The notes under the pieces were generated by a model. That model was given only the letters and a program-made list of their open reading frames with translations. It ran no database searches and was not told the origin of the DNA. This document shows positions 1 through 59,337 of a DNA stretch of 64,000 nucleotides, one piece after another (the first letter of the stretch is position 1; every line of letters begins with the position of its first letter). The DNA is from Moniliella sp. 'wahieum' (lineage: Eukaryota): the NCBI GenBank assembly GCA_003971905.1, contig RSEE01000025.1:434001-498000 (forward strand), read 5' to 3'. Both the position numbers and the translations under genes were made by a program.

Positions 1-2356
1 TTTGGAGGAACGCCCTTCCCCCCCCCCTCGAAAGAGAGGGGAGCAAAAGAGTCAACATGAAGACACAGCAAATGAAAGAGGAGGGGACAGGAATATGAGA
101 AAGAGAGGGATGAATAAGGCTCGCACAACAGCCAACCGCGGTATGCAAGAAGCATTATACAATGCAGGCATGCTGATCCGTGCCTTGGCACCGGCCTCTG
201 GGCATAATTTGAGATGCCCGTCGACAACGGACGATATGATGATTGGCGCCATGGTTCTCACGACCAAACCCAACGCCGGTATTGAGAGCATCTACCTCTT
301 CTTGCCTTTACTTCAAGGCCACAGTGATGATGAGTGGTTCTCCTTTTCTCCCAAAATTACCCAATCGTGCCCGCGCTTTTGCAATGACCCCTCAAAATAT
401 ATCCCAAGGAATACGATGTAAAAGGAGTCAGTCAGACTTCACCCCCTCTACCCGTATTTCCCCGTGGTTCCCCAAATGGCCAGCTCTACGCCGCTTTCTC
501 CCCGTTTCGTTGCTGCCGTTGGCTGGATCTAGGGAGACTTGGTCGGCATTTGTGCTTATTCGCCATGACGCCATCCTCATGAAGTGAACACGCCTTCGAA
601 AAAGTACCGTAACGCCGGAATGAAAAAAGTCACTCCCGCTCAGGCAGCCAAGTCGATAATGGGCGTTGAAGAGGTTGTGTTCAAGCTGCTTAAGCATGAC
701 TTAAAGAAGCGATGTTTTCACAACCCACACCACTCCGTTTTCCTACTTACTACTCAGAAAACATCCGATAGTACTTCTCTCGATCGTGTGTCAGATCTGA
801 GATATGTCGATGAAGCCGAGGCAGCTGGAAGTAAGTCCTGGTGCATTAGTTTATCCGGATCATTGCATGTGTATAGCAGGCCTATGGAATGTATCTATTC
901 CGTTGATTTGCCGAAAAGATCTCAAGATCGACGTAAAACACACATTGAAAGCAGAGTGCCAGGCCGAAGTTGACCTTGTGTCGCGTATATGATAGGGCAG
1001 CGGGCCGTGAGCCACCCGTGTGTCAGACTTTGGCGTTCCTCTTAATTCTTAGTTGGTACCTGTCTTTTTCTTGACGGCTGAGTGGTAGATACGTCTTCGT
1101 CTCCTATAATCGACGTTTAGTTTACAACGGCCCCATCCAGTGGTACTAGTAGAGATATAGGATGGCCAAAACAACTGATTGGAACGTGAATAAGAGAGCT
1201 GTCGCATGTGAGATCTGAGATGCAAGAGTTGGTTGCACATGTGGATTATCCGCCGGATACCATGATGAAGAGACAGGCCACTAATTAAGGCAAAGGGTAG
1301 TGAATATGCTGGGTAACATGTAACAGAGTGAAAGATTGGGGGCTAGGGTGAAGTACTAGACCGGGCGATCAATGGGTGAGCGCGATGAATCGGTCACACC
1401 AGTGAGAGCCCAGAACCGCGGTTGTCCGTTAACTGAGAAGTAGCTACGCTACCAAGCTAAGGACGATTGCACTGTGCAGGGTGGGAACAGTCAGAGAAAG
1501 CTTCTTGTAAGCTCCTGACGCTAGTCCAACCTTCAATGCAACAGGGAGAAGAGGAAGGAGGGGAACGAGGGCGCGACGGTAACCAATCCGGAGCGCGCGA
1601 GTCGCGGAACTCTATAGCCAGTTCCGCTTGCAGCGACATGGCCGACCCAGCCATCACCACCAAGTGGTGCCACATGCCACCACACTCCAACACAGAGGCC
1701 TGTTCACCGCCGCGTTATCGACTATCGATCATGTTCTAGCGGCTAATGTACCCAGCTGGACTCCTCTATGCCCTGATATTTTCGTGAGGGTATAAAGTTG
1801 GAGGTGCATGTGGGACCTGTGGAAAAGAGGCAAAATGGAGATGGGTATCCCAGAAGAACCTGTTACGCTGGCTCACCCGGGGTAGCTAGTAGGTCCGCTT
1901 GGCCAGGGAAGCTGGAGACCATCGCACCAACCCTGCACACCGCCGAGCATACACGTGTGCGCAAGCGTGTGTCACATGTCATGGATGAAATAGTTTGTCA
2001 TTCACGTCATCCGTCATTCATGCGCTGCTGCTTTGATGTGGCGGCATGCAGCTGGATGTGCCGCACAAGAGCACCGCATGCGTCCACGACGCCTGGCTGG
2101 CGTAGCGCCTCTGCCGCAACCACAATGGCATGTGCAGCGGCACTACGCACTAGTCACTAGGTGCTTGCTATATACTCCTACTAGTTACGTGACGCAGGCC
2201 TGCTCGCCACGGCGCCTGTGTCTTGTCTCCCTGCATCGTCTGCCCGAACATGGGAGAGCCTTCTGGTCCGCGTCCGGGGGCAGCCGGTCGGTCAGGTCAG
2301 CCGTATGCCCCGTCGGCACACAGGCGCCCTGCGCGGAGCTGACCCCGCCTGCAGTC

Positions 2357-2418
2357 TTTAAGCTTTAACGTTTAACGTTTAACGTTTAACGTTTAACGTT
2401 TAACGTTTAACGTTTAAC
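2357..2418. repeat. Heptamer tandem array (AACGTT-T)x7, preceded in register by AAGCTT-T
   Basis: Read directly: ttt AAGCTT t AACGTT t AACGTT ... t AAC; about 400 bp upstream of the S53 peptidase ATG. Confidence 0.95.
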
Positions 2419-2817
2419 TGAAACGCAGGCAATGGGGCTGAGCATGATCGACGATTGGCACGCGTCCCCGGCATGGGGTGAGTGAGGAGAGAGAGCACAG
2501 GCGGGAAAGCAGTACGGGGCAGTTGGCGTGTGTTGCTCTCGCCCCCAGCCATGCCCACTCCGTGCTGGCTCGCAAGGGCCAGTGCTGACTAAGCTAGACA
2601 CCTCCGTCCCATGGCACCACCCCTCTCATATATATCCCCCCTCCGCCACGGTCATCCGTCAGCGCATCTCTCCTCTGTCCACCTCCTCCGTCCTTTTCTC
2701 CCCTCTCGCCCCCTCTTCCCCCCTCTTCCTCCTCCTGCCCCGCTCCCTCTCCCACCTTCACGTTCTTTGCCCACCCCCCCCCACGGTTTCTCCTTACATA
2801 TCTCCCCCCGCCCCACC

Positions 2818-4886
2818 ATGCTTACCCGCGGCGTTCTCCTCCTCGCCGCCTCCTCCGCCGCCCTGGGCGCGCGCGTGCTCAGTGGCGCCAAAGTCAACCC
2901 CCACGCGTACCAGTATATCTCCTACCACCGAGGCCCACCACGCGCGCGAGATGGAGTTCACCATCTACCTTCCCTCGGCCGACGATGCTGGCCTGGACAA
3001 AAAGATGCACGAGATCGCTCTCAACCGTGACCTGCCCTGGTTGACCGACGAAGAGTTGGGCGAGTACGTGCGCCCCGAGGCGCACCACATTGCGGCGGTG
3101 CAGAAGCATCTTGAGGCCCATGGTGTCCCGGACCATGCGTTGACCTGGACGCCCCATCAGGACCAGGTCAAAGTCAAAACGACCGCCAAGACCGTCAAGG
3201 CCATGTTCCCTGGCACCGAACTGCACCTCTACAAGTTCCGTGACGCCACCGACATTCTCAAGTCCCACGCCGTCTACATCCCCGACCACCTCGCTGCTGC
3301 CGTGTCTCATATCTCCTACTTGGCCGACTTCCCCGTCCCGCGCGGCTCGGCCGTTCGCGCCCCCGAGCACCTGCAGAACAAGAAACGTGCTGACCTCGCC
3401 GTCCCCGCTCGGCACAGCAAGCACGGCAAACGCTTCAATCGCGCCCACAGTGGTCCCGTCATGGCCCCGATTCAGCTGCAGCCTAATAGCACAGGGGTCA
3501 AACCGGCCAGCCTCTTCAAGGGGGTCCACCTGCCTGAACAACTGACTGGATGCAACGAGGACTTAATTCCGGCTACCTGCCTGCGTCACTACTACGGAAC
3601 GTACGACTACACGCAGAGCCTCGAAAAGAACCACCGCCCTTCTTCTTCCGATCCGCCCGATACCACCATCTTTGGTTACATTGGAGAGAACGCCAACCAG
3701 AAGGACCTGACGACCTACCTCAAAAAGTTCCGTCCCGAGGCGGCCGATTACAAGATTGAGATCCAGGATATTTACGGTGCTTACACCAACGTTTCGAATC
3801 CCACCGGTGAGGCGCAGCTGGACATTCAGATGGGTACGTTGGTATTCCTTGTTTTTGTGCTGGCTGCCATGCACGCAGAATGCTGACTTTGGCCTCCCCT
3901 CTTTTTTCTCACCCTGCTTTCCCCCTGCAGTCGTCGGCCAGTCCTGGCCCCTGGAGGCCAAGTATATCAACCTCGGCACGCCCGACGATCCGCAGGACAT
4001 TTTCCTCCAGACGTTTGACTGGCTGCTGTACGATGATGGGAAGGATCAGCGGCCTGGTGTGGTGTCGATTTCCTACACGTCGGACGAAGATGGCATGTCC
4101 ATTTCAGGTGCGAACGAAATGTGCAACTCGGCCAAGAAATTGACGGCCTTGGGCACGACGATCGCCGTCTCGACCGGGGACAATGGCGTGTCGGGCGCAG
4201 GGGCGCAGGAGAAGGAGTGGTGTGCGGCCGATGGCGGCAAGCACCCCTTTATTCCGCTTTACCCAGTCACCTGCCCCTACATTCTCGCCGTGGGCGCCAA
4301 CCGTGGGTTCAATGGGATTGCCGACGGCGAAGCGATGGTCAATGTTAGCGCGGGCGATGGAGGCGCCTCCAGTGGCTTTTACTCGGGCGCCGGTCGCTCC
4401 AACATTTTCTCCCTGACCCAAGCCCAGTACCAGGAGGACGACGTGCAGCAACTGTACCAGAGCATCGCTGACTCGCCCACCGAACCGTCCTACATGTACA
4501 ACCACACCGGTCGTCTCTACCCGGATCTGACCATGAACGGCTGGTGGGCCGATGTGATTGTGGGCGGTAAGGTGAATGGGATTGGAGGCACGTCCGCCTC
4601 GACACCCACCACGGCGGCCATTTTGGCGTTGGTCAACGATGCGCTGGTACGCAAGGGCAAGTCGCGTCTGGGCTGGATCCACCCGCTGCTCTACTCGTCC
4701 CAAATTCACGAGGAAGCCTTCAATGACATTTCGCTCGGCGGCTCCTTTGGTTGCAACCCCATCACGACCGACAACGATTACGGTGTGATGTATGTCGGCG
4801 CCCAGGCTCGGACCGGATACGACAGTTCGGCGGGCTTGGGCTCGTTCCGGTTCAAGAATCTGGTCCGCGCTTTGGGGGTTTTGTAA
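2818..4886 (+). CDS. Secreted S53 sedolisin-family peptidase (tripeptidyl-peptidase-like)
   Basis: Signal peptide MLTRGVLLLAASSAALG at ATG 2818; frameshift near 2920 into the activation prodomain; catalytic motifs EAQLD, STGDNG and GGTSASTP; C-terminal GYDSSAGLGS Ca-site-like motif; intron 3834-3930 (GTACGT..GCTGAC..CAG) joins the frames. Confidence 0.92.
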
Positions 4887-5720
4887 ACTCTCTCGGTTCA
4901 TCTCCTTGGGCAGATGCTATATGCCAAAGGACTGATGTGGGACTAGGAGCTGTGCTGATGCCCGTTGCGGTGTTGCGATTGGCACACTCTTTCCCGTCGT
5001 CTTGTCATTTCTCATGTGCCTGTATTTACTTGATCCGTCCAGCTTCCTCTTCGCCTGTTCGCCAGAGCGAGGGCTGGGGAAAGGGGATTGGATGGTATGG
5101 TTCGTTTCGTATATATATGTTGGGATTCTCTCTCTGTAGCATGCTGTGTCTAGCACGCTCTCTTCTATGATGGCTAACATGGATGCGCACCTACCGGCTT
5201 TCTTTGTTCTCCTCTTCTCTTTCTGTGTTTGATCCCAATGATTCCTACTCTTCAGTGATTTTGTGTGGCTTGGTTGCCTCGCATGGTCGTTTCTGACGGA
5301 TAGAAGGAGACCGATGGGAAGTCCACCTCTGGTTGGCGTGCGGCCGGGGCGGCGCATGCCAGAGGCAGATTGCCTACGTGGCCGCAGCCAGCAGGGCATC
5401 GGTGCAACGGGTGCAGCCCACGACAACCCGCATCACGCATCCCGTCGGATGCATGATGCATGACAGATCAGGGGCAGGCCCAACCCTACTGCGCACGGCT
5501 TCTTCTTGACGGATGGAACCCATTGCGGCAGACAGCGCCAGTGCCGTTCTGCGGGGGCTGGGCCCTGCGAGGCAGCGCAGCGCAGAGCAGCGCCGTGCTG
5601 CCGCCCTCGCGCGGCCGCCTGCCCGACTGGGCCTGCTTGTTCTCGCTTCCGCGCCCGTTCTTCGATCGGCCCACCACCTGTGTCCCCCTCCCTGTCCCTG
5701 TCCCTGTCCGCGTCTTTACC

Positions 5721-6281
5721 ATGGTCCGTCCCGCCGCTCCCATCCCCCCTCCCTGAGGCATCCGCATTGCGTGCACTACTAACCTCCGATGCCCTTTCCA
5801 GTCTGACGACGAGAAGCACAATGTCGAGTTTGAGTCGGCCAACGCTGGCGCGTCGCTGACGTTCCCCATGCAGTGCTCGGCGCTGCGCAAGAACGGCCAT
5901 GTGGTGATCAAGGGCCGTCCGTGCAAGATTGTGGACATGTCGACGTCCAAGACGGGCAAGCACGGACACGCCAAGGTGCACCTGGTTGCCGTTGATATCT
6001 TTACCGGCAAGAAGCTCGAAGACATTTCCCCCTCGACGCACAACATGGAGGTGCCCAAGGTGACGCGGACTGAGTACCAGCTGGTCAACATTGACGATGG
6101 CTTCCTCAACCTGCTCACCACCGACGGTGACTCGAAGGACGATGTGCGTGTTCCCGAGGGCGAGTTGGGTGACCAGCTGCAGGCCGACTTTGACGATGGT
6201 AAGGACCTGATGGTCACCATCGTCTCGGCCATGGGGGAGGAATCGGCGTTGGCGTTCAAGGAGGCGCCCCAGGGCAAGTAA
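5721..6281 (+). CDS. HYP2: Translation factor eIF5A
   Basis: Hypusine motif [15 protein letters not shown] 5721-5723, then intron 5724-5801 (GTCCGT..TACTAAC..CAG), then [18 protein letters not shown] in frame with the 5868 ORF. Confidence 0.98.
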
Positions 6282-7807
6282 ACTCGCCTTGTCACACGAG
6301 ATTGACTGCGCTTCTTGGTCGCGTCGAAACACATCTCTATGCATGACTAGGTACTTGCTCCTTCTTCGGCGCGCTCTTGGGCGGGGACATGTGGTGCTTG
6401 CAATAGTTCTCCTTGGCAGTCTTCCTTTTGGTTCGCCATCCTGTCTTCTAGTAGCGACTCGAAGCAGATGATTCAAACGCAGGTTGGGCATCCCATAGGA
6501 AGGAGTACGTTCGTGAGAGCTTCGCGGAGAATGAATAGCCAGTTGTACCATCGACCATTCGCAGTGGATGAAGAACATTGAATGCCAACAGTAGCTGGAG
6601 AGCAGAAGACAGCGCTCGACGCCGGCACCGAACAAGATTGGGATCGAGCAACGCTTGAAGTCCTCGTTTCGTATAAGCGGGGTCGACACGCCTCAACGCG
6701 TCAAGGTAGCCCCCATCTGCGCGGGCAGGCACACGCACGTGGAAGTAGCTCGAGCGGAAAAGAAAGGCGCCCGTGTTCAGCAACGCCAAGGGTGTGGGGG
6801 GGAGGGGGTTGAGGAAGGCAGCTGTACCCATCAGGTGGAGGGAGACGACCACCGAGCCGAGAGGAAATGACTCATGGAGCGCTTCTACCTGAAGTCTGTT
6901 TGGGTCAGCGGCTCAACAGCACGGGATCTATAGGTGAGCAACGCCGTACCATTCAGCCCAGAAGACGGGCTATAGACGTCTCGCTGAAACTCAGCTTGGT
7001 CGAGGGGTTCTTTGGTGGGCAGGAGGTGTGCGGCATCGCAGCCTAGTGTCATAGAGATGTGCCTCGAGCATCTTGAGTAAGAGGGCAAATCCGACCGAGG
7101 AAAAGGACTGTAAAAGTGAGTAATTCGCAGCAGTTGGGGGCTTTGAGAGGGAGCGTGAAGGTACAGTTCACTAGGAGACGCTCAGAGAGGGCATGGAGGG
7201 ACAGTGGCTGCGAAGGGGACTCATGAGAAGTAGGCTGGAAAAGGTGGCGTGCGGGGGGGGGATGGGAAGACACGAGAGGGAGGGGGGCGCTCGGCCTAGA
7301 GATGGGGGGTGTGGAGGCGATAGGAGCTGGGAGAAGAGACTCGGGCTTGGTCCATACATACATAGGAAAATGGTGTTGGGGAATGCTGTTCGCAGCGGGC
7401 TAATCGACAAAATGAGGTATGGGTTTGCCCCACACTCTGGTGGACGATCAAGGTGTGGAGGAGAGGATGCGCATGGCGACTCGAAGCAGAAGAGGTCGGG
7501 CGGCGAGGGTGCTGTTTGCCTGGTGCGAGCTCCCACCTGCACATCATGAGATGGGTCCAGTGGCGCCCCAACGGCAGCAAGCGGCGGCCACACAGACACA
7601 TATGGCGGTGGGCTGGGTTGTGCTGGGCGGGGCTGTTCATTTGCGTGTGCAAAATGATCTTTTGCTGATCTTAATGATCGACCATCCGATTGATATTGAC
7701 TCCGCTTTGCCACAGCCCCTGGCTTCTCTGGGCTGGGCTAGATGCGGTGTACTCCACCGTGTTTCCCTGCGCGCTCGCCTCGTTCCCGCGCACCGCACCG
7801 GTGGCAC

Positions 7808-8887
7808 ATGCACCTCCGTATCGCCTTTGATCCCGACGCCCTCGCCGACACGCGCGGTAGCGTTGGTGCCCTGGTCAGCTTTCAGCCGTCCCCGCTGGCT
7901 GCCTGTCCCGCCGCCTCTCTCTCGGCACCTACCGACCTGTCTTCTTCTCTTGCCGAGGGCAGCGTCCTGCCGCCAGCGCACGCTACCCTCGAAGTGGATG
8001 CACGCCAACTACTGCTACGAACTGTCCTGCCTGCGGAAGCATTTAAGAAACTGCTCAACGTAGACCCGTGGCGCACCCTCGTCGACCGACCCTGGTCCCA
8101 CCGCGGCGGCAATGCGTTGGACAATGACGTGACGGGCGATGTGGCGATTGGACAGATCCCCTGTCTTGCCTCGTCTGACGGCACCAGCTACCCCAGCGGA
8201 TACCACATGCACCAGGCCGACGCCAACTTGGCAGACGAAGGGCGTTTCCTCTGGTCCTGGGAGCAGGTGGTGGAACGCATCCAGCGGCATTGGGACCTGA
8301 CCCCCGACTACGCCAGTTTCCTCACTTTCGAGGACAAGCCCACGTCGATGGTGTGGAACCAAGCGTCGTGGGACGCCTGTTGGTCCACGTACCTGCGCTA
8401 CAACACTTCTCCCTCGGGCCACGTACGCTGGCGCCTCCGTACCGCCCGCATCGTGTTTCGTTCGCCTGCCAAGACGCCTGTCGCCCAACCCCGTACCCCG
8501 CGCCCCAGTTCGCTCGACACACATCCACTCCTCGGCCTACCGGGTCCGGACCAACACCGCGGATGAGCGTTGCGACGTCGCACTATTCGCACCACTACCG
8601 CCGGCCAAGGTAACGTATACGTGCTTGGAATGCCTTCCAACCTTGCGTCTGCAGGCGACCATACATGCGCCTATTTTCTGACCCAGCCACTGCCTGATGT
8701 TGTTGTCCTACAGCCCCACTGCGCGCGGGACGGAAGCCAAGCGCGCGACCACCGAGGAAGGCTCTTCCCAGACCAGCAGCAACGTTCTCGGCCCCGGTCC
8801 CTGACCTTTTCTCCCAACGCTGCCGCGCAGCATCGACCAGACGAGACGGACGGGGAGTTGTTTCGATTGGCAGTCGCGCGTCTCTAG
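7808..8887 (+). CDS. Hypothetical protein
   Basis: About 250-aa globular-looking ORF (MHLRIAFDPD...WSWEQVVERIQRHWDL...); possible intron at about 8609 (GTAACG..CTGCAG); no family recognised; 3' end uncertain. Confidence 0.4.
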
Positions 8888-18971: not shown

Positions 18972-19580
18972 GGAGGGGAGGGGGGGGCGATGGGGGGGCG
19001 CTGCGTCGGAGGGCGGCTGGTGGAGTCGGGCGATGCTGTGGGGCGATGCTGACGGTGTGGTACGTCCGATGGCCGGGCTAGTGCATGCGAGGCGGAGGCT
19101 GCGGCAGCCCAGCGCTTATTTAAGTACGCATGCGCCCCCACTGCGCCCGTGTGCCTCGACGCTCGGGCCCTCACCCGCCGACGCATGACGCTCTGCAGCC
19201 TCTCCTGCAATGCAGGCATCACATTGCATCATCCTCCGCTCTCAGATCTCAGACCGCACTCGCCGGCGTGCGTCGCAGCTGAGGCTCAGCGAGCAGAGCA
19301 GCACCACGCCCCCTCCCTCGGCACCATCCGCGCTCCCTCCAGCCGCTGCCACGCCCGCGTCAGCATGACTCATGCCTTGGCCATTCCATCGACATCCCTC
19401 GGCCGCGGCGGTGCGGCGGCTGGGGCTGCCAAATGCACGCCCACCCGCACGCCGCCGACGTCATCATCACCGCCCCCTCGCCTTCCCCAGCTTCCACGCC
19501 GGCCAAATCACCCCTCATCACACCCCCGCCTATCCCCGCGCTTACGAGCGGCCCGCGGGGAGTACGTAAGCAGCCAGCCC

Positions 19581-19604
19581 TCACATGTCACATGTCACAT
19601 GTCA
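19581..19604. repeat. Heptamer array TCA-CATG x3 + TCA
   Basis: tcacatgtcacatgtcacatgtca, upstream of the minus-strand C2H2 gene. Confidence 0.9.
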
Positions 19605-26941: not shown

Positions 26942-26964
26942 TGCATGATGCATGATGCATGATG
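26942..26964. repeat. Heptamer array (ATGCAT-G)x3
   Basis: tgcatgatgcatgatgcatgatg, about 60 bp upstream of the bZIP ATG. Confidence 0.9.
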
Positions 26965-28594: not shown

Positions 28595-30356
28595 CCCCGG
28601 CGGCCAAGACTCTGACTCGTTTTTTTCCCGCCTTTTGCCTGTGTTTGCCCCTCCCCATTGATCACTGTAATGCCACTTTTTGGGTGGGCGCCTCGACATC
28701 ACAGCTGGGTGGTTGTATCATGGATTCTATCACGCTCTGCAGTGACTATAGCGCAACCAGTGTGGCTAGGTCCCCCCCCCCATCTTAGTCGCAGCATCCT
28801 CCGTATGTGAGGCACCGACTCGCCCCGGAAATTGGTCCTGAGTGACCGTAACTAGTAACGCGTAAACTGTGCATCACCGTATATAGTACTCTTGCCCAAA
28901 CGCGCTCCCCACGGCTTACACATGTCCCACCTCTTCTTTCTGTTTGGCCCCGTGGGTCTCTGGTACCCCTACCCAGCTTTTCACTTGACGTCGGTGCACC
29001 AAGCTCGCCAAGGATACTACGGCGAGAGCAAGGTGTTTTGGGCGTGTGATGGAATGAATTAACTGCGATGAGTCTCTCTTTGGAGATGGTTCACCGCCCA
29101 CCTATTATCGACCACGTTCATCCGTATCCACGCACGCTACATCCGGCTTGGGCGCGAATTGCGGACGCAAGTAGATTCTTGAGCTGCTGGCGAATCCTCC
29201 GGTTTCCTAATCGGGTCGGCACCAACAAAAGCTGCACACGCCGGATGAGCGAGAGCCAGTTAGGCGCCGTATTTCTTTGTCCTGACTTCAAACCTGTAGA
29301 TGTGATGTGAATGCAACTGTTGCAGTAGGATATATCTATCCCAAATCATCTCAAGGAGGAAATGATCCAGAATCATGATTCTCCAAAAGGCCACACCGCA
29401 TCACACCAGAGAACACATAAAAGTGGCACTGGCTTCGGGTTACACTCCACGCCCTAACCCCCAGAGCAGGCCATTTTTGGCCCACATCGACTCGGTGCAC
29501 CAACTCTACGCTCGGTACCGCACAGCTTGCAGCTGTCCGTACTAGTTGCGTTCAGGTCCAAGTGCCTGAGTTCCAGACCCCCTGGCGGTTGGATGAGATG
29601 TTGAAGCTTTTTGCGTGAACATAATAACCAGATTTTTCGTCGGCAATGCAGCTGCAGCACTCCAGCGCCGCACCAGGCCGCACCCAAGTTTAAGTGGAGA
29701 AGTTGAGTGGTTGGAGATCCCATGGACAGCTCGATGAGATCGATGACCTTGGAGGCACATCCAGTACTGAGCTCACGCGCCATGAATCATTCATGCTCGC
29801 CTGAGGCCTGATGAAGGAACAAGCAGCTCAGGCTCTACGCGGCGCTTCGCCGTCCCTCGGCACCAGGGGGATGGACGTCTGAAAGAGTACTGTCCCCAGT
29901 GTGTCCACGGAGGGACACTGCAGAGGCTAGTTACTGAGTTCAGTACGTATTAACCCAACGCCAGCGCCCAGGGTCACCGGTGAGTTCTTAGCGCTGGGGG
30001 CTGGGGGACTGAGGCTCAGCGGCTCAATAAGTTGAGTAAGCTCAGCGGCTCCCGAGTACTGAGTCGTCGATGAGCCCACCTCATCCATCTCTCTCGCAAC
30101 GCTCCTCGGGCCCAGGCCTCAGGCTCTCAAGCTCTCAAGTCTCTTGAGACCCTCAGCCACTCAGTACTACACTAGGTACTCAGTCTGAGAGTGAGTACTC
30201 AGTACCTGTCACAGTGACGCCACCACACTAGTCCGCACCGTCATCGATCATTACGCGTTACCTTGTCGCCAGGCCATCCACCCATGTCCCGCCAAAGCGG
30301 GCAAAAGCCGACCACACTGTCGAAATGCATCCTGGCGCATCGCGGGGTGGGCGCAC

Positions 30357-30596
30357 TGTTGGCCTAGGGAGCCGGACGGGCAGAAGGATGAGGAGAAGGT
30401 GATGGATTGGAGCCAGAGTTGGGTCTGGGTACAGAGGCATCTATATAGGAGGCTGGACTAGGCACAGGGACAGTGAGTCACACAGGAGAGAGTGCAGGGC
30501 ACAGGGACAGTGACACGCAGGGACGTCAGCGTGGAAGCCGATGGAACCGAGGCGAACCTGGTCTACCGACTGGGAGCCAGAGGATCACAGTCAACA
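30357..30596. repeat. LTR copy 1 (240 bp)
   Basis: Direct repeat of 31510-31746. Confidence 0.95.
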
Positions 30597-31315
30597 CCCC
30601 GCTGGCCAGGGAACCCGGAGACATCGGTTGTGGGATGAGCTCCTGCCAGTGGATGTAGAGAGGGGAGGACTTGAGTGGCAACCGGGACGAATGGCCTGGA
30701 GTTGTGCATGGCCACACACTGGCCTACACCCCCGCTGTCCAGGATGACACCTGAACGAGCCGAGCGCTTGTGGTTGTGTATTGTGCGACCGCCAGATGCT
30801 TGTAGAAGTCTTAGAAGTAAAAGTAGTAGGGGTTGCGCCCCGAAGCGATTTGGTGGGCAAAAGTAAAAAGCACCAGTTATAGGTGGTGAAAGAAAATTGG
30901 AAACTTGGAGTAAATGCGGTCCAAGGTCGTTTGGCATCAAAATTGGATGCGTTTGGTAGTTGTTTGGTTCCGCATGCCTGGTGCCAGTGGGGTCCATTGG
31001 GCATGGGAAATGAACGGGCGCTATGCGTCAACCGTCTTGATCTGTTTGGGTTCTCTTTGTTGTTGAAAAAGAGGAGTGGAAGAAGTTGGGTGACCACCCC
31101 CCCCCATCCTTTCCCCAGGTGCCCCGGATGAATTGGCAATCCGGGGCGTGTAGCCGTGGGTGGGGCACTTGATGAGCAGCCACCCCCGCTTTCTGCGATT
31201 CGCCTGCGCCGTTTTGTCGTTGGAGGAATTTCGTCTCGTTGACGATACCCGACACGTTTTGTTCCGTCGTGTGTTGTCCCTAAAAATCATTGCCCCATCT
31301 GTGGGGGACGAGTGT

Positions 31316-31390
31316 GCCGATTGTGGCGGTAGTATGCCGATTGTGGCGGTAGTATGCCGATTGTGGCGGTAAGGCGCCGATTGTGGCGGT
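31316..31390. repeat. About 20-bp minisatellite (GCCGATTGTGGCGGTAGTAT) x about 4 inside the LTR element
   Basis: Read directly; the later copies are degenerate. Confidence 0.9.
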
Positions 31391-31509
31391 GGTGTTGTTG
31401 GGCGGGACGGGTGTGTCTTGTGGGCTTGGCGGCTTAGCTTGGGCTTGTAGGCTTGGGGGTGGGCTTGCTTGAAGAGCGCTCCCCTTCCGGGGGGATCAGA
31501 TTGTAGCTC

Positions 31510-31746
31510 TGTTGGCCTAGGGAGCCGGACGGGCAGAAGGATGAGGAGAAGGTATGGATTGGAGCCAGAGTTGGGTCTGGGTACAGAGGCATCTTATAGA
31601 GGCTGGACTAGGCACAGGGACAGTGAGTCACACAGGAGAGAGTGCAGGGCACAGGGACAGTGACACGCAGGGACGTCAGCGTGGAAGCCGATGGAACCGA
31701 GGCGAACCTGGTCTACCGACTGGGAGCCAGAGGATCACAGTCAACA
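31510..31746. repeat. LTR copy 2 (237 bp)
   Basis: By eye, differs from copy 1 only by three single-base deletions. Confidence 0.95.
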
Positions 31747-32095
31747 CGCACGGACCTCCCTGTGCCTACTACAGCCTTAACGTTTAACACGTTTAACTCG
31801 CTCCAAAGGTCCAAGGCCTCTCCCCCAACCGCTAGCACAGGGGGAACGAACTGATTGATTGTTATGCAGCTCATATGCACATGACCGCCCAGACCCTCCG
31901 CCGATTTCACCGTGGAGCAACGGTAACACGTACCGTACCACTTCAGTCCCTGCACGCATCAGATTCATCAGATGATATAACGAGCAAATAAAAGCCCCAC
32001 TTGTGACCTCAGCCATCTGCCGCGCAACCCTCCAACCACCTTGTTCCTCGCATCTCCGACCATCGGCTTTGGCTTTCCAATCATCTCCAACCAGA

Positions 32096-39559: not shown

Positions 39560-39590
39560 TCAGGCCTCAGGCTTCAAGCTTCAAGCTTCA
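39560..39590. promoter_or_regulatory. TCA-N4 heptamer array in the very short divergent heme lyase/PAN1 intergenic region
   Basis: TCA GGCC TCA GGCT TCA AGCT TCA AGCT TCA; the regulatory role is inferred from position only. Confidence 0.5.
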
Positions 39591-46567: not shown

Positions 46568-47356
46568 TTGCCGGGACCAGATCGGAGCCAGCATGGTCCA
46601 ACTCAGATTCAGATCGCCCCCCCCCCCAATGCATATCAATTGGTCGCAACCACCGGATTCTATCTATTGACCGCAACCATCGGCACCGCTTCGTTGGGAC
46701 ACGAGTGCGAGTTTGGGGTAGCAGGGTTGGTAGGGGGAAAAAGCCGATAACCTACGTGAGTCATTGTGCGACGAGGCTTGAGAGTTATGTCACGTTTGTG
46801 GTAGTAGTGATCGAGCTGCTGTGTGTGGTTACTGAGTACTGAATAGCCAATGTAGTTATGCCCAGCGGCTCGAGCTCAGCAGCTGAGGGCTTAGCTTAGC
46901 CGCTCAGCCAGTACAGCTCAGCGCGCTCAGCCGAATCAACAAGACCAACACCCTTGCTACGCACCAGCGCGACCGGGCATGGTGGCGTGACGCGTGATAT
47001 CGGATACCTGGTGAATATATGGATCGGTGCCTTCAAGCTTCACTGGCTCTGCTAGGCCGGTAGCTCTGTTGGACTGATATACTGGGCAGAGGGGATGGGG
47101 GGGAGGGGGGGGGGGGCAAGATCGTAGCCACACACCAGTGCAGTGGGATAGAATCGTATGACCCAACGGACTTCCACCGGGAAAAGGGGGCCGGTTATAG
47201 TATTTAGTGAGATAGTCGTTGGGAGGGGGAGGAGGCAACTGTACCGCACAGAAGCGGGTGCCTCTTGCCCCGAGAGCACAACTGGCGAAGATTCCTGCGG
47301 CAGAAAGGAAGAGGAAAGAGGCAACAGAGGGTACGATCACGCGCATCGATCAAACT

Positions 47357-47390
47357 TGAAGCTTGAAGCTTCATGCTCCAAGCTTCAAGC
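47357..47390. repeat. TGA-AGCT/TCA-AGCT heptamer array
   Basis: tgaagcttgaagcttca...caagcttcaagc, about 350 bp upstream of the C2H2 gene. Confidence 0.85.
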
Positions 47391-47721
47391 CGCATCGGCC
47401 GCCGTGCGCTACCGTACCTCGTGCCCCGTTGGAAGAGGTCCAACAGCTGTACTGCCCCCCTATAGCATTGCATATTGGGAAGCCAGGCCTCAGGAGTTAT
47501 AAGGGTGCAAAACCGCCAGAGGCCAGTTATACGTAGAAGTATATATCGTTGTTGCATCATCGATCAGTCGAGGGTCTCCCGAAATACTAAAGCCCCTGAG
47601 CTAAGTTATACGTGGATTGCGACGATTTCTCCCCACCAACTTCTCCGAGCTTGCCACCACCACCACATTCCCATCCACCACCTCTAACGCACCCTTAACG
47701 CCTTTTACGACCCGTACGACC

Positions 47722-51770: not shown

Positions 51771-52546
51771 CGTCGCGTTCGTGCGCTCCCTACTACTAAG
51801 CCTGGGACTCGTACATACAGTGTGGTTCAGACAGTTGTGTGCCGCGTCAGCTTGTGATGGCTGATAGTTGGAGAAAACGCGTCAAACACCGGTACTAGCG
51901 ATGCGCATCGTGATCGCCTCGGGTTTCGTCACCAGAGCATTGGATCAAAATGCTGGTGTCGGGGGTCGTGCCAGCCGGTGCCGGACGGAGTATGATGAGA
52001 CGTCCTGTAAAGGAAGTACCATGCACGCGTAGCTGGAAGCCAAGCTCCATCTGCTTTCGACGCTTTGCTCTTTGCTGTTATACCGTATTCACTTGCCGTC
52101 TCGTCTCGTCGTATCATACAGACCGGATCAACAGATGTGAGTTTGTGTCTCCCGTTCATTTCCTTTGGCCCAAACCCACGTATTTGCCAAACCAAGTGGT
52201 GGCAGCGATCCTCAGTCTTTGTCTTCATCAAGTACAGATCAAAAGCTGTAAACACTAGCAAGTGTTTTCCACTTGTTCAGCACAGCGTTCGTGCGAAGTA
52301 GGGGGCGACGACACAGGCAGCGTATTAACATTTCGACGACACAGGTAGGCATATATGAGGACGGGTGTGGTGCAAAAATATACAAAGAAAAATAAGACGA
52401 TGGTGGGGCAGGACCAGCATGCCGCCGAACGACGGTCGCACCTACTATAAACCCAGGGGAAGGCGTGCGTGACAAGAAAAGCCCGAGTCCATGGTGAAAG
52501 GGAAGCAAGTGCGGACTGTACACAGGGAAATAGAGGCATGGAAGCA

Positions 52547-53971
52547 TCAACAGACAGCATGCGTACGTTGGTTCAAATTGGTCGGGATCCAATGACCCAA
52601 GCCAGCTTGGTAGGACCAATAACTTGTTGGATCTTCGGTTTTCCAAGTAAACATGACCCATCCCTGCGTTGTGTTCGTATACGAGCGACTGGGTGTCGAA
52701 CAGTTGTTGTCGGTAGAGCGTATCGTCGACCCGCCCAGGATGGGATCGAAGAGGGCGCGCCTTCGGCCGGGAGGACCGGCGTCCGGCACCGGAAGTGGGC
52801 GGGGTCTGCTTTTTCCCGTTGATTCTTGCGTCTGGCGACACTCCACTCTCCCAGATTGTCTCATGGTGCGATTGGCTTGCTGCGAGCGCCCCTTTCAGTT
52901 GACATACTTGCCGCAAGGCGACATCCGTCACATTGTTGTACGCTGGCGGGTCTGCAGCAGTACCATTGGTCAGTCGTCTCCATTCCCCCCATTACCCATT
53001 ACACCCTCAACAATACGAGTTACTGTTCGGGAAAGCACACGTACTGGCAACACCACTGTTGTACTGGTACATGTTGGCGTAAATGTGTGTATCGACGGAT
53101 CCCTTGCCACCATTAAAGGTGTACCAGGAAGACAGGTTGAGGAACCCATCATGGTACACCGACGTAAACCCCGACTGCAACTGGTTGAGGGCAGTAGTGT
53201 AGTAATTCTTAGTAAAGGCAACGTTGTTGTCCTTGTTCATGTTGAGCAACGGCTCATTGAGCGCCTCAATGTGGGTCACTGTGCTCTGTTTCGAGCTGAA
53301 GGTAGAAGCAATCTGTTTCAACACTGCCTCGGCATTGGCGTTCGACTGAGCATCTTGCCAGTACATACCCCCCTCGGCCGGACGAGCCGTGGCCATTCTG
53401 GGAACCGGGTGCGCCATGCAAACAGATGATGACTTTGATCCCGTGGTTCTCAGCCCAACCGACCGCACGAGATAAGTAGGCCGTTTGGTTGGCGTGCACG
53501 TACGGCTCCCCGGCTGAGGTGTCGTACGCCCAGTACCCAATGGGAATCCTTCATTGCAACTGCGTTAGCTAGCCGGACACGCGCGCCTATCCCTGACAAA
53601 ATGCAGAACAGAGGAACGACATACCGAACATAGTTCAGGCCCACGGCGGCCATCTGGCGGAAATCGTCTTCAGACACAAAGTTCTCCCAGTGTTTGGTCA
53701 GGATTTGGGTGGCGTTGGGGGCATACCCAAACGTCCATTCATCAATGATGGAGTTGTTCCCTGTTGATTGGTAAACGGAAGGTACGAGCCACTGCTCGCT
53801 TACCAACCACCCGCTAACGAAACATCATCCATCCCATGCTCTGCAGTCAGTATACTCAGTTTGGTGCTTCGACAAACGACGTCCGCGGGACATACCCAAG
53901 GTTGACCCCCGGATGGGAGCAGCGCACGCAACGTGGGCCGCAGCAAGAAGCACCAATAGAAAAAGGCGCAT
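52547..53971 (-). CDS. Secreted GH5 exo-beta-1,3-glucanase (EXG1-like)
   Basis: Signal peptide MRLFLLVLLAAAHVACA; IRGVNLG|GWLV (intron 53895-53814); IDEWT; GLNYVR|IPIGYW; LHGAPGSQNG; acid/base LNEP; DTHIY; nucleophile GEW; FTWKTE. Confidence 0.92.
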
Positions 53972-54484
53972 AATGCGGAGCGGGAAAGAATGTGAGGAAG
54001 ACAAGGGCGGTGCGGGAAAAGTTGGAAATTCAAGCAAAGGACGTGAAGGGGGGCGTGCAATATGAAAAGGGTTGGGGTCGGTCGTCAACAGGAGGGCAGG
54101 CGTGGAATTGGTGGGGAGGAGGCGAGGGCGAGGCTAGATGGCCATGCGCTTTGCGGGTAGCCCGGGGGGTGAAGTCGAGAGTTGAGGAGATATGGGAAGC
54201 AATATGACACTGTCTGTAGGCTATAGGAGCGATGAGAAGCGCGCTGAAAGAGGCGCTTTTTGGATCCTCTTCTCTCCCCTCTCTGCGTTGCAGTGCACGC
54301 GCGTGTGTGTGGCGGAAGCGTTTGGGCGGGGATCCGTAGCATGCGCGCTGCGCGATGGCGACGTCCGAGCGTACGGTTGTTTCGGATGGCTGACGGCCCT
54401 GGTCCAACAGCAGTGCAGCTATGTAGAATGTCCACATGCATGTGCATTCTCATGATCATCATGTGCACACGTGTATCTCACATC

Positions 54485-54722
54485 TCACCGGTCACCGGTC
54501 AACACCCGCCTGTCATCGATTGGTCATACGATCACCACCCACATCATCGACTACTTGGCCCTAGACTTGAAGCTTAAAGCTTAAGGCTTGAAGCTTGATG
54601 TATGACGGCGGCCAAGACGAAGAGGACCATCCGACCACATGCCCATACCAGGGCGAGTTCATGGTATGCAGCTGGAGCAGTGGAAGATCGCCTTCCTCTC
54701 CATCGTCACGCGTCACGCGTCA
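54485..54722. repeat. Cluster of three different heptamer arrays (TCA-CCGG, TGA/TAA-AGCT, TCA-CGCG)
   Basis: Arrays at 54485-54501, 54568-54598 and 54706-54722, upstream of the GH5 gene. Confidence 0.9.
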
Positions 54723-55132
54723 TAGAGGCCATCTGCAATACGTCAATTAGCCTTTCGGCAACTGAAGCAGACCGAAGCTTGAGGCTTCTGTTAATGCGAG
54801 GACAAAGGCCTACGGAAAGAAGACACAGAGGGAGGTGATGGATCTATTCCAAGAGAGGAGCCCGTTAGGGGCAGAACATAGAGGAGAGTCGGATAGAACA
54901 GCGCGATGCGTGATGCGTGATCAGCTGCATGCATGATGGCGCTGACAGCTTCAACGTCTCATCGGCGCTCCCGGCCCGAAGCGTTTTCCATTTGCTACTA
55001 GCTATAAAACGGGAAAAGTTCTTCTATTATCGTGCCTGTGTTGGGTATTCAAAAGCGCAGTCTGTGGCCCAGAGAGCCACAGATAATGCTACCGATACAT
55101 GTGTGGGAGTTCAGATCTCTAATAGTTTACTA

Positions 55133-55730
55133 CTGCTGAGCGTGCTGAGCGTGCTGAGCGCTCAGGCTGAGCGCGCTGAGCGGCTGTGAGCATGCGAGCG
55201 CGTGAGCACGCTTCGAGTGGGGAGGATGCATCGGTAAACCCATGCGGCCGAGGCCAAAGTCAGAAAGCCAAAAACGGTGTAGTTGGTTCCAGCAGTTCCA
55301 TCAGCAGTGAGTACTGAGTGCTGAGTAGCTAGTAAGTAACTGAGTACTGAGTAGTGATCAATGATTGATGATCGATGATCGATGATCTGTTAACGTGTGT
55401 TACATGTTCCCACGGTTGCTCGCACGCGCAGTTGCTCGCGCGTTGCCACCAATATGTTCAAGAAGCTACCAGCCGAATGTTGCGTTTTGACATTTCAACT
55501 CAAAGGTCCAACGCCAATGTGTCAGCGCGACGCGTGATCAGGCTTCAAGCTTCAAGCTTCAAGTCGGTCACCGGTCAAGCTTCAAGCTTCAAGCCACATA
55601 GGCCATTTAGTACTTAGTACTCAGTCTGAGTACTTATGCAATGCTAGACTCGGTGAGCATATATGTATCGGCATTTCACAGACACCTAAGGCCGTAGTCA
55701 CTAGTCACGCTAGTCACGGGCTAGTCAGGA
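55133..55730. repeat. Dense cluster of TNA-spacer arrays (GCTGAGC, TGA-GTAC, TGA-TCGA, TCA-AGCT, TCA-CCGG, TTA-GTAC, TCA-CTAG)
   Basis: Read directly at about 55135-55190, 55308-55385, 55538-55591, 55607-55636 and 55698-55727. Confidence 0.9.
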
Positions 55731-58700
55731 GCTATAGGGAGGCCATATAGATGGGCACTTTGGGGCGTCTTCGTAGATATGGATGGGGGGGATATGCATC
55801 TGGCCGATGCTTCAAGGAAGAATGCAAGTCGAGATGTGTGAGGCCATGCGACCCCCGCCACTGCTACAAATGTATCGGGTTTGATTGATGATTCTTTTGA
55901 ATACAGGCCAGGTCCTCTCGCTCGTCCAAACTTCAACAAGTGTGTCGATAAATCAACATGTCAACATGTCATGCCAACAACATTCTCAATCCTCCGTACG
56001 TAAGATGTGGATATACTCTCAAAAAAGTGATAATCAGCCAACCGCATAGCCATATGATGTGGTACAGGAGGCAGGCCGCCAGCTCGATGGCAGTGGCCAA
56101 CATTGATTATAGTAGCTGTGTGTGGGTATATGTCGGATCCTCCTTCTTCTCTGTATAGGCACATCTCGAATACACACTAACGACGGAATTAAACATGATT
56201 GCATGATACCGATCGGAAAGAAAAATATATGTGACAGAGATGGAGATGCACGTTGTCGATCGAAGCTCGAAGGTGAAAAGCAAATGGAGAGATGTCAAAC
56301 AATCATCGTTATTTCTTAGCATCTTTCGGCATCCAGAGGCATGCCCTTGTGTATCATATATCATGCCCCTTTCTGCACACTTTTCGTGTGTCGCGCCACA
56401 AATCATATAATGAACATGCTGTTTGCAAATTTTGGAGGCTTGGTACTGGCTTGTCTGCTTATCTCGTCTTAGCACTTAATAGCCGTGCATCTCTTATCTC
56501 CCCACACTCCACTCGCAAGGATTGGTTCCTCGTCAGGCCTCAGGTCCGTAGATGATGCGGATGACGAGGTAATGAGTTTTTCTGGGCAAAACGATTTTGT
56601 TTCCCCCAACAGTGACACTTGCATACAGAAATAATCAGGGGAAACGGGCAGACAAATGCGATGTTGCACTGAAGGCATACATTCTCTTGATAGTATACCG
56701 TGCCCATATCATTCGATAGACGCAGCTTACGGCTGTTGGGATGGGAAAACTGTGCGCCTAAACCGACTCGCTCATCAGGCCCGTGTTTTGCCTGTTGGTG
56801 CCAAACGCGTTTAGGGAACCAGGGGAATGGACAGCAGATCAGGGCTCTCTGGTGTGCCGCCATCTGTTCCTATACCAGAGGCAGTGCGTGTGTTGGATAC
56901 GGATGAACGTGGTAGACATCCGAGCGGTGAACCATCTCCATATGAGACTCAGTACTCATTATAGCTAATTCGTTCCAGTACCCAAACATCTTGTTCACCC
57001 CGTCTTGATGGCATAGTATACCGTCGAGTCGTCAGAACCAAAAAGGGAAAAAGAGTTCTTGGGTGCGTCCCAGGTACTTGCCTTCGTGTCGCATTACGCT
57101 CTGAAGAAGTCAACGGCCGAGGGAGCTCCTTCTCTCGGCGTTCCAAAGGCGTCGCGGTGCATCGTGTACCCCCTCTCTGGTACACAGCCATATCCCCTCC
57201 TGAGTTCCCGAGTCCCGCAACGTTTGGTCCACCTCCATTATTCCTAATCCTCCGATTGCTCAAAACGTGCCATATCACTCGGCAGCGAGTGTTACGGGCT
57301 GCGGTGGACCCGAGATGGTCCGATCCAAGCTAAGGCCCCCTGCTCCGCACATGCCCAGTAGAGCGCGTGCTCCGCAATCCAACCAAGTGTGATGATGGCT
57401 GGTTAAATTAGGTACCGAGGGCCGAAGGGCCATGCATTCGCACGACAATAGTCGCCCCTCCCGCACAAGTCCAAGTCGGCTGGCCTAAAAAAGGCCACCG
57501 AGAGCTTCCAGTGTCTTGGCGACGACTGTCCCCTCTGTCCCTGTTTCCTTTTCCTTTCTCGATCGCGCCTGCGGCGACCAACCCCTCTTTTGATGTGCCT
57601 TCCTTTTTACACCCCCACTTGTATTTCCTTCCTTTTGATCTAGCCTGTACCCCTGGTTGATGGGGATCCTTTCCCCCACCTTCCATTCTAGTCATCTCTC
57701 GCCTTCAATCTCCCCCCCCGCCTATCCTGTCCGACTCCTGCCCATTTTCGAGCCAATTGATCCAGTACAGGCAGCTTCCTCTCTTCTTTGCTCCCGCTTC
57801 CTCTTCCTACCTCGTCCTCCAGCACTCCATCAGTCCAGTCCGCGCGTGCTGTCCTTCAGCTACGTCGATTTCCAGTCTCTATCCAGTCTCCGTTGAGGCA
57901 GTGTTTGTCTACCTCCGCCTCCTGCCGTCCCTTAGTCCCGGAGGCTTCAGACACGTTACTACAGCCCAGGCCAGTGCAGATGCAGTACAGCCGCCCCACC
58001 AAAGGCCTCTTCTCGTCCCTAGCTCCGCTCGGATCCACCAACTAGTCCAAGCCCGAAATTACCGTCGTGAGTCGACCTACTGTCTCCTAAGGGATCGTAA
58101 CCCCAAACCCCGGGGCGTGCCCCCTGGTTGGGCCCGCTCCGTGACGGCCAGTAGTCAGTCGTCAGTACGCATCGCCTTCCTCCCACGCCCTGCCACGCCT
58201 CGTGCCGTCCTGGCCCTCCACCGTCGGCTGGTTGTGGATGTGGGTTTCGGGGATTGAGCGCATGAGTTGGAGAATGAGCTCCCGCACCGTCTCATGCAAA
58301 CCACCAAACCTGGACTGAGTCCGGGTGCAAGCCATTACGATGCGCTCAAGCGAGGACACGACGCCACACTTATACACATGTATAACAGCCACACACGATC
58401 ACTATTAAAAATCCACTGTGATCGCGAGCGTGGCGCGGATATAAGCCTCTGCCCCTTGTTCTTTTTTGCGCTTATATACCCTCAGATATAGAGAGGCACG
58501 TTCTTGGCGTCTCACAGATCTGTCGAGTTGTCATAAACACGGGGTCTCTCTGTCGACGAGACACGGCATTCAAGCTTCAAGATGTTGTGAAAACGGTGAA
58601 ATTAACGGTGAAACCGAAAAGCGTATGGCGCTCGGTAAGATGTGTACGCTCAGCGCTCACAGCTGTTTTTGAGCCTCTATCATCGTCTAAACATGCTGTC

Positions 58701-59003
58701 TAAAAAGCATGTTTTTGAACGCCCTGATACATATGACAGCTAGCGGACGCCGGAATATCTTCCCTCAATATCAATACCCACTTGCATATGTACGACAAAA
58801 CACTTCTGAGAGGGTTTCCAACAAAGATATCGTCGAAGATTGGTATAATAATCTCGATGTGCAGCACGTGGACACACGCGATAATCGGTGGTCAATCATC
58901 TTGACCATGCACGGCCTGGGGAGTAATTCGATGTGCGTTTGGGTCCTACCAGGTCCTACCACGGCGACAGAGGGGAAGGAGAAGAATGGAGGTAAGACGG
59001 CGG

Positions 59004-59337
59004 TAACCGGTTACTAGTTCTAGTCACGCGAGTCACGAGTCACTCCTGAGTGATGCATGATGTATGATGACTAGGATCGGTGACTGATGTATGCATGATG
59101 CATGATGCATGATTTCCTGTGTGGCTTGCGGAGCCGGGAGAGAGGGAGGGAGCGGGTGGCGGAGTATCTAAGACAGTGCTGCAGCGCCAGGGGCACAGGT
59201 AAGTTACCGGTGACTCGTGACATGTGACATGTGACATGTGTGACATGCGACCAGCCAGTGATTGCGGTACTAGTGTTGAACGTTGAACTTCAACGTTGAA
59301 CGTTGAACGTTGAACGTCGAACGTTTGAACGTTGAAC
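59004..59337. repeat. Cluster of heptamer arrays (TGA-TGCA, TGA-CATG, TGA-ACGT, TAA/TTA-CCGG)
   Basis: Read directly, 380-710 bp upstream of the Ariadne ligase ATG. Confidence 0.92.

Follow-up and report, generated by a model that had tools for sequence, protein, structure and literature searches.

Repeats with a 7-nucleotide period are known from prokaryotes, where the heptanucleotide repeats include the short tandemly repeated repetitive (STRR) sequences of cyanobacteria, and long simple sequence repeats (SSRs) in prokaryotes, heptanucleotide ones included, have reportedly been described by Mrazek et al. 2007. Hairpin-forming microsatellites (CAG/CTG) and palindromic AT-rich repeats are self-complementary, fold back and are prone to expansion. 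A further example of heptamer repeats is GGGAATC in Xanthomonas (excerpt of Rehm et al. 2015, PMC4692102). In the excerpted text of PMC4561436, Ac/Ds footprints contain palindromic fillers that come from hairpinned flanks, and the PIF/Harbinger/Tourist elements produce 3-bp T-N-A target duplications with any middle base. Synthesis-dependent microhomology-mediated end joining (SD-MMEJ), as outlined in the available portion of Yu and McVey 2010 (PMC2943611), gives rise, through snap-back or loop-out insertions primed at tiny self-complementary stretches, to direct and inverted repeats that span the junction, whereas the "palindromic microsatellites" of Fusarium mitochondria are intergenic (A)n-(T)n runs (excerpt of PMC7218506). 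Here we analyze a 64,000-nucleotide stretch of DNA from Moniliella sp. 'wahieum' (contig RSEE01000025.1, positions 434,001 to 498,000; hereafter the window), in which numerous short loci consist of two identical T-N-A trinucleotides around a palindromic tetramer. No description of this T-N-A/palindrome syntax was found in the full-text literature searched, a provisional result given that most subscription journals are outside its scope.

T-N-A/palindrome units far exceed random expectation

According to the original prediction, more than 20 short arrays that look like unrelated microsatellites share a single syntax, T-N-A every 7 bp with palindromic tetramers in between. The unit is indeed present at all 24 positions named there, the one at 2149 being CTAG-TCA-CTAG. 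A search for perfect period-7 arrays of at least two copies identifies 42 in the window, 22 of which are dyad arrays, i.e., have a unit composed of a 6-bp palindrome and one additional nucleotide; in 20 of these 22, the outer pair of the palindrome is A..T (A-xyy'x'-T). The background, 50 dinucleotide-preserving shuffles in 1-kb blocks, yields a mean of 5.1 period-7 arrays (maximum 9) and 0.58 dyad arrays (maximum 2). The remaining 20 arrays are non-dyad 7-bp duplications, many of them G- or C-rich and of low complexity. At other periods, there is no dyad excess in the window (23 versus 18.2 at period 5, 0 of 7 at period 8 and 0 of 11 at period 9). Autocorrelation analysis detects 29, 19, 13 and 9 pairs of A-pal4-T hexamers (where pal4 is a palindromic tetramer) at spacings of 7, 14, 21 and 28 bp, respectively, against a background of about 2, and no periodic signal for the C..G, G..C and T..A hexamer classes.

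The test proposed beforehand, a count of TNA-N4-TNA by the symmetry of the spacer, gives 77 cases with a palindromic N4 in the window versus 6.0 expected. Non-palindromic spacers are at background, with 40 cases versus 39.4 for one mismatched pair and 64 versus 59.1 for two. Nothing comparable is seen with ANT, CNG or GNC flanks or with gaps of 2 to 8 nucleotides. The T-N-A/palindrome pattern is thus confirmed as real and far beyond chance.

A comparison with metagenomic sequences indicates that this pattern is a property of the organism or its lineage rather than of DNA in general: the unit density is 0.73 per kb in the window and, for units with spacers other than those scanned for, 0.049 per kb, about 15-fold lower, in 699 kb of unrelated metagenome contigs. 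The metagenome scan was initiated with three units of T-S-A + WGCW and returned at least 121 loci; heptamer arrays of this type are common in contigs of widely differing GC content. Among the matches listed, homogeneous arrays with the palindromic spacers AGCT and TGCA number 65 compared to 46 for the non-palindromic pair of equal prior probability, a weak bias, and none of the loci in the 699 kb combines several kinds of A..T dyad heptamers. One metagenomic locus that appeared similar by count proved to be a general ATCA-type low-complexity tract and was rejected.

The minimal unit can be defined as T-N-A, a palindromic tetramer, and T-N-A with the same N. There are 65 such units in the window, compared to 1.9–2.0 in shuffles (standard deviation 1.5), and they are spread over 44 loci, of which 10 contain two units, 2 contain three and one is an 8-unit array; the other 31 are single units, so that most of the loci are not the arrays that had been postulated. 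Two or more same-N units are present in only 13 of the 44 loci, and head-to-tail copies, the hallmark of microsatellites, are represented by the 22 perfect dyad arrays, all 14 bp or longer. When the remaining 60 flanking trinucleotides are pooled, 111 cases are found versus 78.4, i.e., only a general, approximately 1.5-fold excess of tandem repeats.

The geometry of the unit is revealed by isolated occurrences. In 34 of the 200 A..T palindromic hexamers that stand alone, position -2 is T and position +2 is A, and the two flanking N are the same in 27 of these and complementary in 4; thus, the T-N-A copies form a direct repeat around the palindrome rather than a longer palindrome. An outer TNA accompanies all but 2 of the 29 palindrome-TNA-palindrome cases, which identifies T-N-A as the boundary repeat. 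Single units typically extend by 2–3 periodic bases on one side, to a total of 10–13, and thus differ from tandem duplications of 14 bp. In the units, N is mostly C or G, as it is in 142 of 173 isolated palindromic 7-mers centred on T-N-A, which indicates that N follows composition. The spacers comprise 12 palindromic tetramers, each with at least one G:C pair, that are used about evenly; all 11 that had been reported are present, and GATC (at 1209, 19242 and 62342) has to be added. The companion claim that spacers made up entirely of A and T are missing fails on a single case, TCA-TATA-TCA at 56354. Different palindromes are combined under a constant N in three arrays (AGCT and ACGT at 2358, CTAG and CGCG at 28849, CCGG and AGCT at 55568), and the array at 39560 contains the stepwise series GGCC, GGCT, AGCT.

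Palindromy as such is unremarkable in the window, where the number of isolated palindromic 7-mers with T-N-A in the middle is at the background level (173 versus 164.5) and so is that of palindromes of any arm length once the period-7 runs (2,234 bases) are masked. The palindromic arrangement therefore appears to come with the event that generates the unit rather than to be a property of the surrounding DNA. One-substitution derivatives of the unit show a moderate excess (68 versus 44.6, standard deviation 7.1), indicating that units also decay. The elementary product is a direct duplication of T-N-A around a self-complementary xy y'x' with at least one G:C pair, a gain of 7 bp over a lone T-N-A.

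The loci and related stretches are as follows (positions in the window).

1209..1218, single TGA-GATC-TGA unit
1314..1323, single TAA-CATG-TAA unit
1972..1981, single TCA-CATG-TCA unit
2150..2160, CTAG-TCA-CTAG, one of the two palindrome-TNA-palindrome cases without a flanking TNA
2358..2416, 8-unit array, TTA-AGCT followed by seven TTA-ACGT; mixed spacers, same N; directly upstream of the sedolisin open reading frame
5454..5463, TGA-TGCA-TGA, perfect run 5448-5463, upstream of eIF5A
19242..19251, TCA-GATC-TCA
19581..19604, 3-unit TCA-CATG array between a zinc-finger gene (minus strand) and an amino-acid transporter gene (minus strand)
26946..26962, 2-unit TGA-TGCA array
28849..28865, mixed 2-unit array TAA-CTAG-TAA-CGCG-TAA, same N, spacers differing only at the inner pair
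29802..29811, TGA-GGCC-TGA
30241..30260, two abutting single units, TCA-TCGA-TCA and TTA-CGCG-TTA
31777..31786, TTA-ACGT-TTA
39560..39590, gradient array of TCA-GGCC, TCA-GGCT and two TCA-AGCT, between the heme lyase (minus strand) and EH-domain (plus strand) genes
46833..46842, TGA-GTAC-TGA
46988..46997, TGA-CGCG-TGA
47033..47042, TCA-AGCT-TCA
47357..47373, TGA-AGCT-TGA-AGCT-TCA, last N complementary, upstream of a C2H2 zinc-finger gene
47557..47566, TCA-TCGA-TCA
54485..54501, 2-unit TCA-CCGG array
54568..54598, array with AGCT and GGCT spacers, N = G, A, A, G, G
54706..54722, 2-unit TCA-CGCG array
55308..55385, run of about 80 bp with TGA in 7-bp register and the spacers GTAC, GTGC, GTAG, ..., GTAC, GTAG, TCAA, TTGA, TCGA, TCGA
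55545..55591, two TCA-AGCT, then TCA-CCGG-TCA-AGCT-TCA-AGCT-TCA; mixed spacers, same N
55607..55636, two TTA-GTAC followed by TCA; TGA-GTAC-TTA
55698..55707, TCA-CTAG-TCA
56354..56363, TCA-TATA-TCA, the sole all-A/T spacer
56533..56542, TCA-GGCC-TCA
56949..56958, TCA-GTAC-TCA
58570..58579, TCA-AGCT-TCA
58650..58659, TCA-GCGC-TCA
59004..59113, mosaic of units: TAA-CCGG-TTA, CTAG, TCA-CGCG-like, TGA-TGCA (at 59051 and twice at 59096)
59218..59234, 2-unit TGA-CATG array
59277..59335, TGA-ACGT units, one, then three (first N = C), then one, about 400 bp upstream of the Ariadne RBR ligase reading frames
62297..62306, TGA-GGCC-TGA
62342..62351, TGA-GATC-TGA

Where N changes from G to C within the ACGT array at 59277, there is an interrupted palindrome of 19 bp, AACGTTGAA-C-TTCAACGTT (59275-59300), a possible trace of a strand switch. 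At 55134-55186, an array with a 9-bp unit, TGCTGAGCG, continues into a perfect palindrome of 10 bp, TGAGCGCTCA, and irregularly spaced TGAGC words; this array is related to the heptamer units but differs from them in its period. Arrays of period 8 or 9 at 55953-55971, 59230-59247, 55701-55718 and 31780-31797 similarly resemble heptamer units with one or two extra bases, e.g., two copies of TCA-ACATG (ACATGT + CA).

Host genome and location of the units

The window is nuclear DNA of a fungus of the Ustilaginomycotina, with a GC content of about 60%. Protein comparison of the fused HIS7 product yields two top matches with 80% and 78% identity; the closest named protein is from Tilletiaria anomala (62% identity), followed by many others from Ustilaginomycotina, so that the placement suggested from the sequence alone is right at the subphylum level. 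Gene models are rough, being built from open reading frames (ORFs) and a Pfam scan of the 270 ORFs of at least 110 amino acids, with introns and untranslated regions outside the models. Stop-to-stop ORFs match eukaryotic families including sedolisin, eIF5A, a TOG-domain protein, an amino-acid transporter, a short-chain dehydrogenase, eIF3I, squalene/phytoene synthase, RPL24, cytochrome c heme lyase, an EH-domain protein, C2H2 zinc fingers and an Ariadne RBR ligase. Searches of the 64 kb for tRNA genes and for Rfam families had no hits.

The loci occupy gaps between recognised genes, mostly long, AT-richer spacers. None of the 44 falls within the 8,402 Pfam-aligned coding bases, in keeping with the claim that the units lie outside coding sequences; the further claim that they lie mostly 5' of genes is plausible, with the placement resting on the rough gene models. 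Within 250 bp on either side, the GC content is at most 0.58 for 32 of the 44 loci compared to 36% of window positions, and the longest ORF over a locus has a median length of 108 codons compared to 271 for the window. Some loci are located upstream of the sedolisin (2358) and eIF5A (5454) genes, and others between the zinc-finger and transporter genes (19242, 19581), between the divergent heme lyase and EH-domain genes (39560-39590), in the gap between HIS7 and the C2H2 gene (46833-47566) and in the spacer at 28.8-31.8 kb. The short spacers of the five compact genes at 32-39.5 kb contain no units. Near genes, the strand that bears TGA is mostly the sense strand of the gene, in small numbers.

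The densest loci (54.4-55.8 and 58.5-59.4 kb) lie in the gene-poor gap upstream of the Ariadne gene. This 5.7-kb region (54000-59700), bounded by the Ariadne gene and by a minus-strand gene that ends near 53970, contains no Pfam-supported gene, has a GC content of about 52% and holds about half of all units. A pyrimidine-rich tract within it (57500-57900) could belong to a transcript that the gene models miss, as its promoter or leader. The orientation of the units, which is shared across different kinds of spacer, switches from TCA to TGA at about 0.8 kb upstream of the Ariadne gene. The spacer at 28.8-31.8 kb contains a direct repeat of about 245 bp (30353-30597 and 31506-31747, 1,150 bp apart, 98-100% identity), with a tandem array of four 20-bp copies between the two (31311-31390); the long repeat may have arisen by duplication in place or may represent the two ends of a small element.

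Possible origins of the units

The original prediction offered three explanations, namely a regulatory or chromatin factor that reads T-N-A half-sites, hairpin or cruciform elements, and scars of a hairpin-forming or template-switching process. In its simple form, the first is not supported: T-N-A pairs are enriched only around palindromic spacers (77 versus 6.0) and 12 spacers are used, whereas tandem half-sites should be enriched whatever the spacer. Neither do the 12 cores, with 27 same-N and 4 complementary-N cases, fit the fixed core and inverted half-sites of a dimeric factor; the direct T-N-A copies argue against dimeric binding sites and selected hairpins alike. With regard to hairpins, selection would favor a complementary N and strong closing pairs, and what is seen is the same N next to an A..T pair. 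Furthermore, when 10 stretches were folded and compared to 200 shuffles each, 5 had z scores of -2.6 to -7.6 and the other 5 were matched or beaten by 24 to 144 shuffles; only long or composite tracts stand out, and the predicted folds have 5-bp stems with T-N-A triloops. Selected hairpins or cruciforms are thus disfavored. Scarring fits best of the three, although several concrete models of transposon footprints fail, as detailed below. The Ustilago maydis TGA-TTCG heptamers mentioned in the same context find no support in the full-text literature searched.

Our preferred reading, to which we give about even odds, is that the units are neutral products of a mutational process specific to this lineage, rather than binding sites or selected hairpins. 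The identity of N on both sides of the palindrome gives the unit the anatomy of a target duplication plus filler, such as a staggered break leaves after repair: a direct duplication flanks the short filler in the 27 same-N cases of 34, and such units number 65 against 1.9 expected. By the same anatomy, the junction lies in direct or inverted repeats of at least 4 bp (the 6-bp palindrome A-pal4-T and the 3–6-nucleotide direct repeat), as in SD-MMEJ, and the mixed palindromes under a constant N in three arrays are what would be expected from repeated events at one T-N-A. Under this scenario, a break or nick at T-N-A would be repaired such that both T-N-A copies are retained and a short self-templated filler, xy·y'x', is added, perhaps by snap-back or as P nucleotides, in the manner of synthesis-dependent end joining and hairpin-type transposon footprints. 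The resulting direct repeat of 3–6 nucleotides could then allow the unit to be re-copied, via replication slippage, a repeat-spacer-repeat kind of flap duplication or another hit at either T-N-A copy, giving rise to homogeneous and, rarely, mixed arrays; the slipped strand can form a 5-bp stem with a T-N-A triloop. Finally, 7-bp units with TGA or TAA presumably cannot survive in coding DNA, so that they would be lost there and accumulate in long spacers. The anatomy, specificity and location of the units are observed directly, and the break, the enzyme and the polymerase steps are what we infer from them.

Several other derivations fail. Duplication of a 7-bp target with T-N-A in its middle should leave mostly non-palindromic spacers, which lack enrichment. 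An exact 14-bp tandem duplication followed by decay would require sparing of the inner 10 bases, given that single units mostly have 10–13 periodic bases. If the units came from a 5-bp duplication with two P nucleotides, a mirror class in which the repeat is not T-N-A should be just as frequent; this class is absent. Duplication of a 4-bp palindromic target with T-N-A as the footprint is incompatible with the presence of an outer T-N-A in all but 2 of the 29 palindrome-TNA-palindrome cases.

Other observations weigh against a neutral mutational origin. We could not cleanly derive a product with the same N and a random palindrome from any textbook pathway: inverted duplication or zero-loop snap-back alone predicts complementary N, which is seen in 4 of 34 cases; P nucleotides from a T-N-A end predict fixed fillers rather than 12 kinds; and the PIF/Harbinger elements, the known T-N-A duplicators, excise precisely (excerpt of PMC4561436). 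Among the 270 ORFs compared with Pfam, there are no transposase domains, and a search of the window for resident elements with inverted ends flanked by identical palindromic 7-mers returned only arrays. Intact units outnumber one-step derivatives (excess of 63 versus 23), which could reflect constraint rather than youth. The orientation of N comes in blocks, with 8 successive TCA loci (55545-58650) followed by 8 TGA loci (59051-62342); these blocks may be linked to the direction of transcription, to replication or to function. All window counts, moreover, come from a single 64-kb stretch of one genome.

The excess of intact units is one of the reasons to consider selected cis-regulatory or chromatin elements, in which a factor or the DNA shape would recognise T-N-A every 7 bp around a symmetric spacer and clusters would mark promoters or the boundaries of long spacers. 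This reading is rather unlikely in our view. It is favored by the location of all 44 loci outside identifiable coding stretches, by their density beside gene starts (2358, 5454, 39560, 47357, 59051-59335) and, in small numbers, by the prevalence of TGA on the sense strand near genes and the kilobase-long runs of one orientation. However, 12 spacers used about evenly leave no fixed core, the lack of enrichment of non-palindromic spacers implies that T-N-A alone is not what is read, direct rather than inverted T-N-A copies (27 versus 4) do not suit a symmetric dimer, and five compact genes at 32-39.5 kb do without units in their short spacers. Alternatively, the loci could be microsatellites filtered by hairpin formation, i.e., 7-bp slippage arrays of which only those with self-complementary units expand or persist, single units being contracted arrays. 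The 22 perfect arrays, the 13 of 44 same-N loci with 2–8 units, the good folding of long arrays (z = -7.6, -3.2 and -2.6), the weak palindrome bias of the listed metagenomic heptamer arrays (65 versus 46) and the over-representation of heptamer repeats in bacteria (excerpt of PMC4692102) are all compatible with this model, which we nevertheless consider unlikely. By our enumeration, contraction in random phase predicts palindrome-TNA-palindrome and TNA-palindrome-TNA remnants in a ratio of about 6:10, whereas 2 and 31 are observed. The model explains the long arrays but leaves unexplained T-N-A as the boundary, the A..T pair beside N (20 of 22 arrays, with no period-7 signal in the other three hexamer classes) and the lack of enrichment at periods 5 and 9, which have the same symmetry. 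In addition, arrays of 2–3 units fold no better than shuffles, and the raw material is scarce, with 20 of 42 arrays being non-dyad 7-bp duplications, many of low complexity.

Excision footprints of a T-N-A-duplicating, PIF/Harbinger-like transposon family that leave behind two terminal bases of each inverted repeat account for the architecture exactly, as a target duplication plus 2+2 terminal bases would consist of a 4-bp palindrome between direct repeats of T-N-A, whatever the middle base, and the 3-bp duplications of PIF/Tourist accept several middle bases (excerpt of PMC4561436). We still regard this origin as quite improbable: 12 kinds of spacer would require 12 different element termini, PIF/Tourist excision is precise when the duplications match (same excerpt), the window harbors neither a transposase domain nor a resident element, and up to 8 identical units in an array call for a second process. 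Chance or an assembly artefact would be highly surprising. The counts come from assembled sequence, and the 65 units versus about 2 in shuffles (standard deviation 1.5) are short and varied, with unique sequence around them at each of the 44 loci.

Returning to a neutral mutational origin, we tentatively suggest, as a possibility that we do not hold to be the probable one, that a so far undescribed DNA transaction operates in this fungal lineage, in which a nuclease, a transposase-like enzyme or a variant of end joining acts at T-N-A, duplicates it and writes a random self-complementary tetranucleotide between the copies or, alternatively, that selection maintains the same syntax as a code for chromatin or promoters. 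The transaction would leave a 7-bp mutational signature that can be read in the sequence and from which a whole class of palindromic heptamer microsatellites in promoters and spacers would grow; if the units are selected, basidiomycete yeasts and smuts would possess promoter or spacer elements of a new kind.

Comparison with known repeat and repair systems

Slippage is usually considered sufficient to explain short repeats. The window, in contrast, shows an enrichment of about 30-fold for a strict syntax of three parts (a direct T-N-A repeat, a palindromic spacer of any of 12 G/C-containing kinds and the 7-bp period), with every near-miss form at background, and a rule as sharp as this suggests that a specific molecular step is responsible. 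Hairpin-forming microsatellites are defined sequences, whereas the window combines many sequences under one syntax, with one mismatch per 7 nucleotides and with most tracts too short to fold better than shuffles. The palindromic microsatellites of Fusarium are fungal and intergenic like the units in the window; as described in the excerpt of PMC7218506, however, they are mitochondrial, consist of inverted mononucleotide runs and have neither a 7-bp period nor T-N-A, and the two kinds of repeat are unrelated.

Transposon footprints and the units have in common a short direct target repeat around a few palindromic bases and a scattered distribution in non-coding DNA. They differ in that hairpin fillers are fixed by the flank, as opposed to 12 unrelated palindromes here that neither termini nor flanking bases explain (each of the duplication models fails), and in that arrays of identical units are not footprints. 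Like the units, SD-MMEJ junctions involve small net insertions with direct and inverted repeats that span the junction; in the available portion of Yu and McVey 2010 (PMC2943611), these come from induced breaks in Drosophila, vary from junction to junction and follow no fixed 3+4+3 design, and simple snap-back would yield a complementary N.

Finally, the prokaryotic heptanucleotide SSRs resemble the units in the 7-nucleotide period, the intergenic location, the unexplained excess of that period and the potential to form hairpins. They are, however, bacterial and usually form long arrays, their hairpins come from inverted pairs of arrays, and they show neither a T-N-A rule nor a random palindromic spacer; in the fungal window, by comparison, only 1 of 44 loci exceeds three units, the unit itself is symmetric and the arrays are unpaired. 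The rule described here may also help to understand why bacterial genomes have their long-known excess of 7-base repeats.

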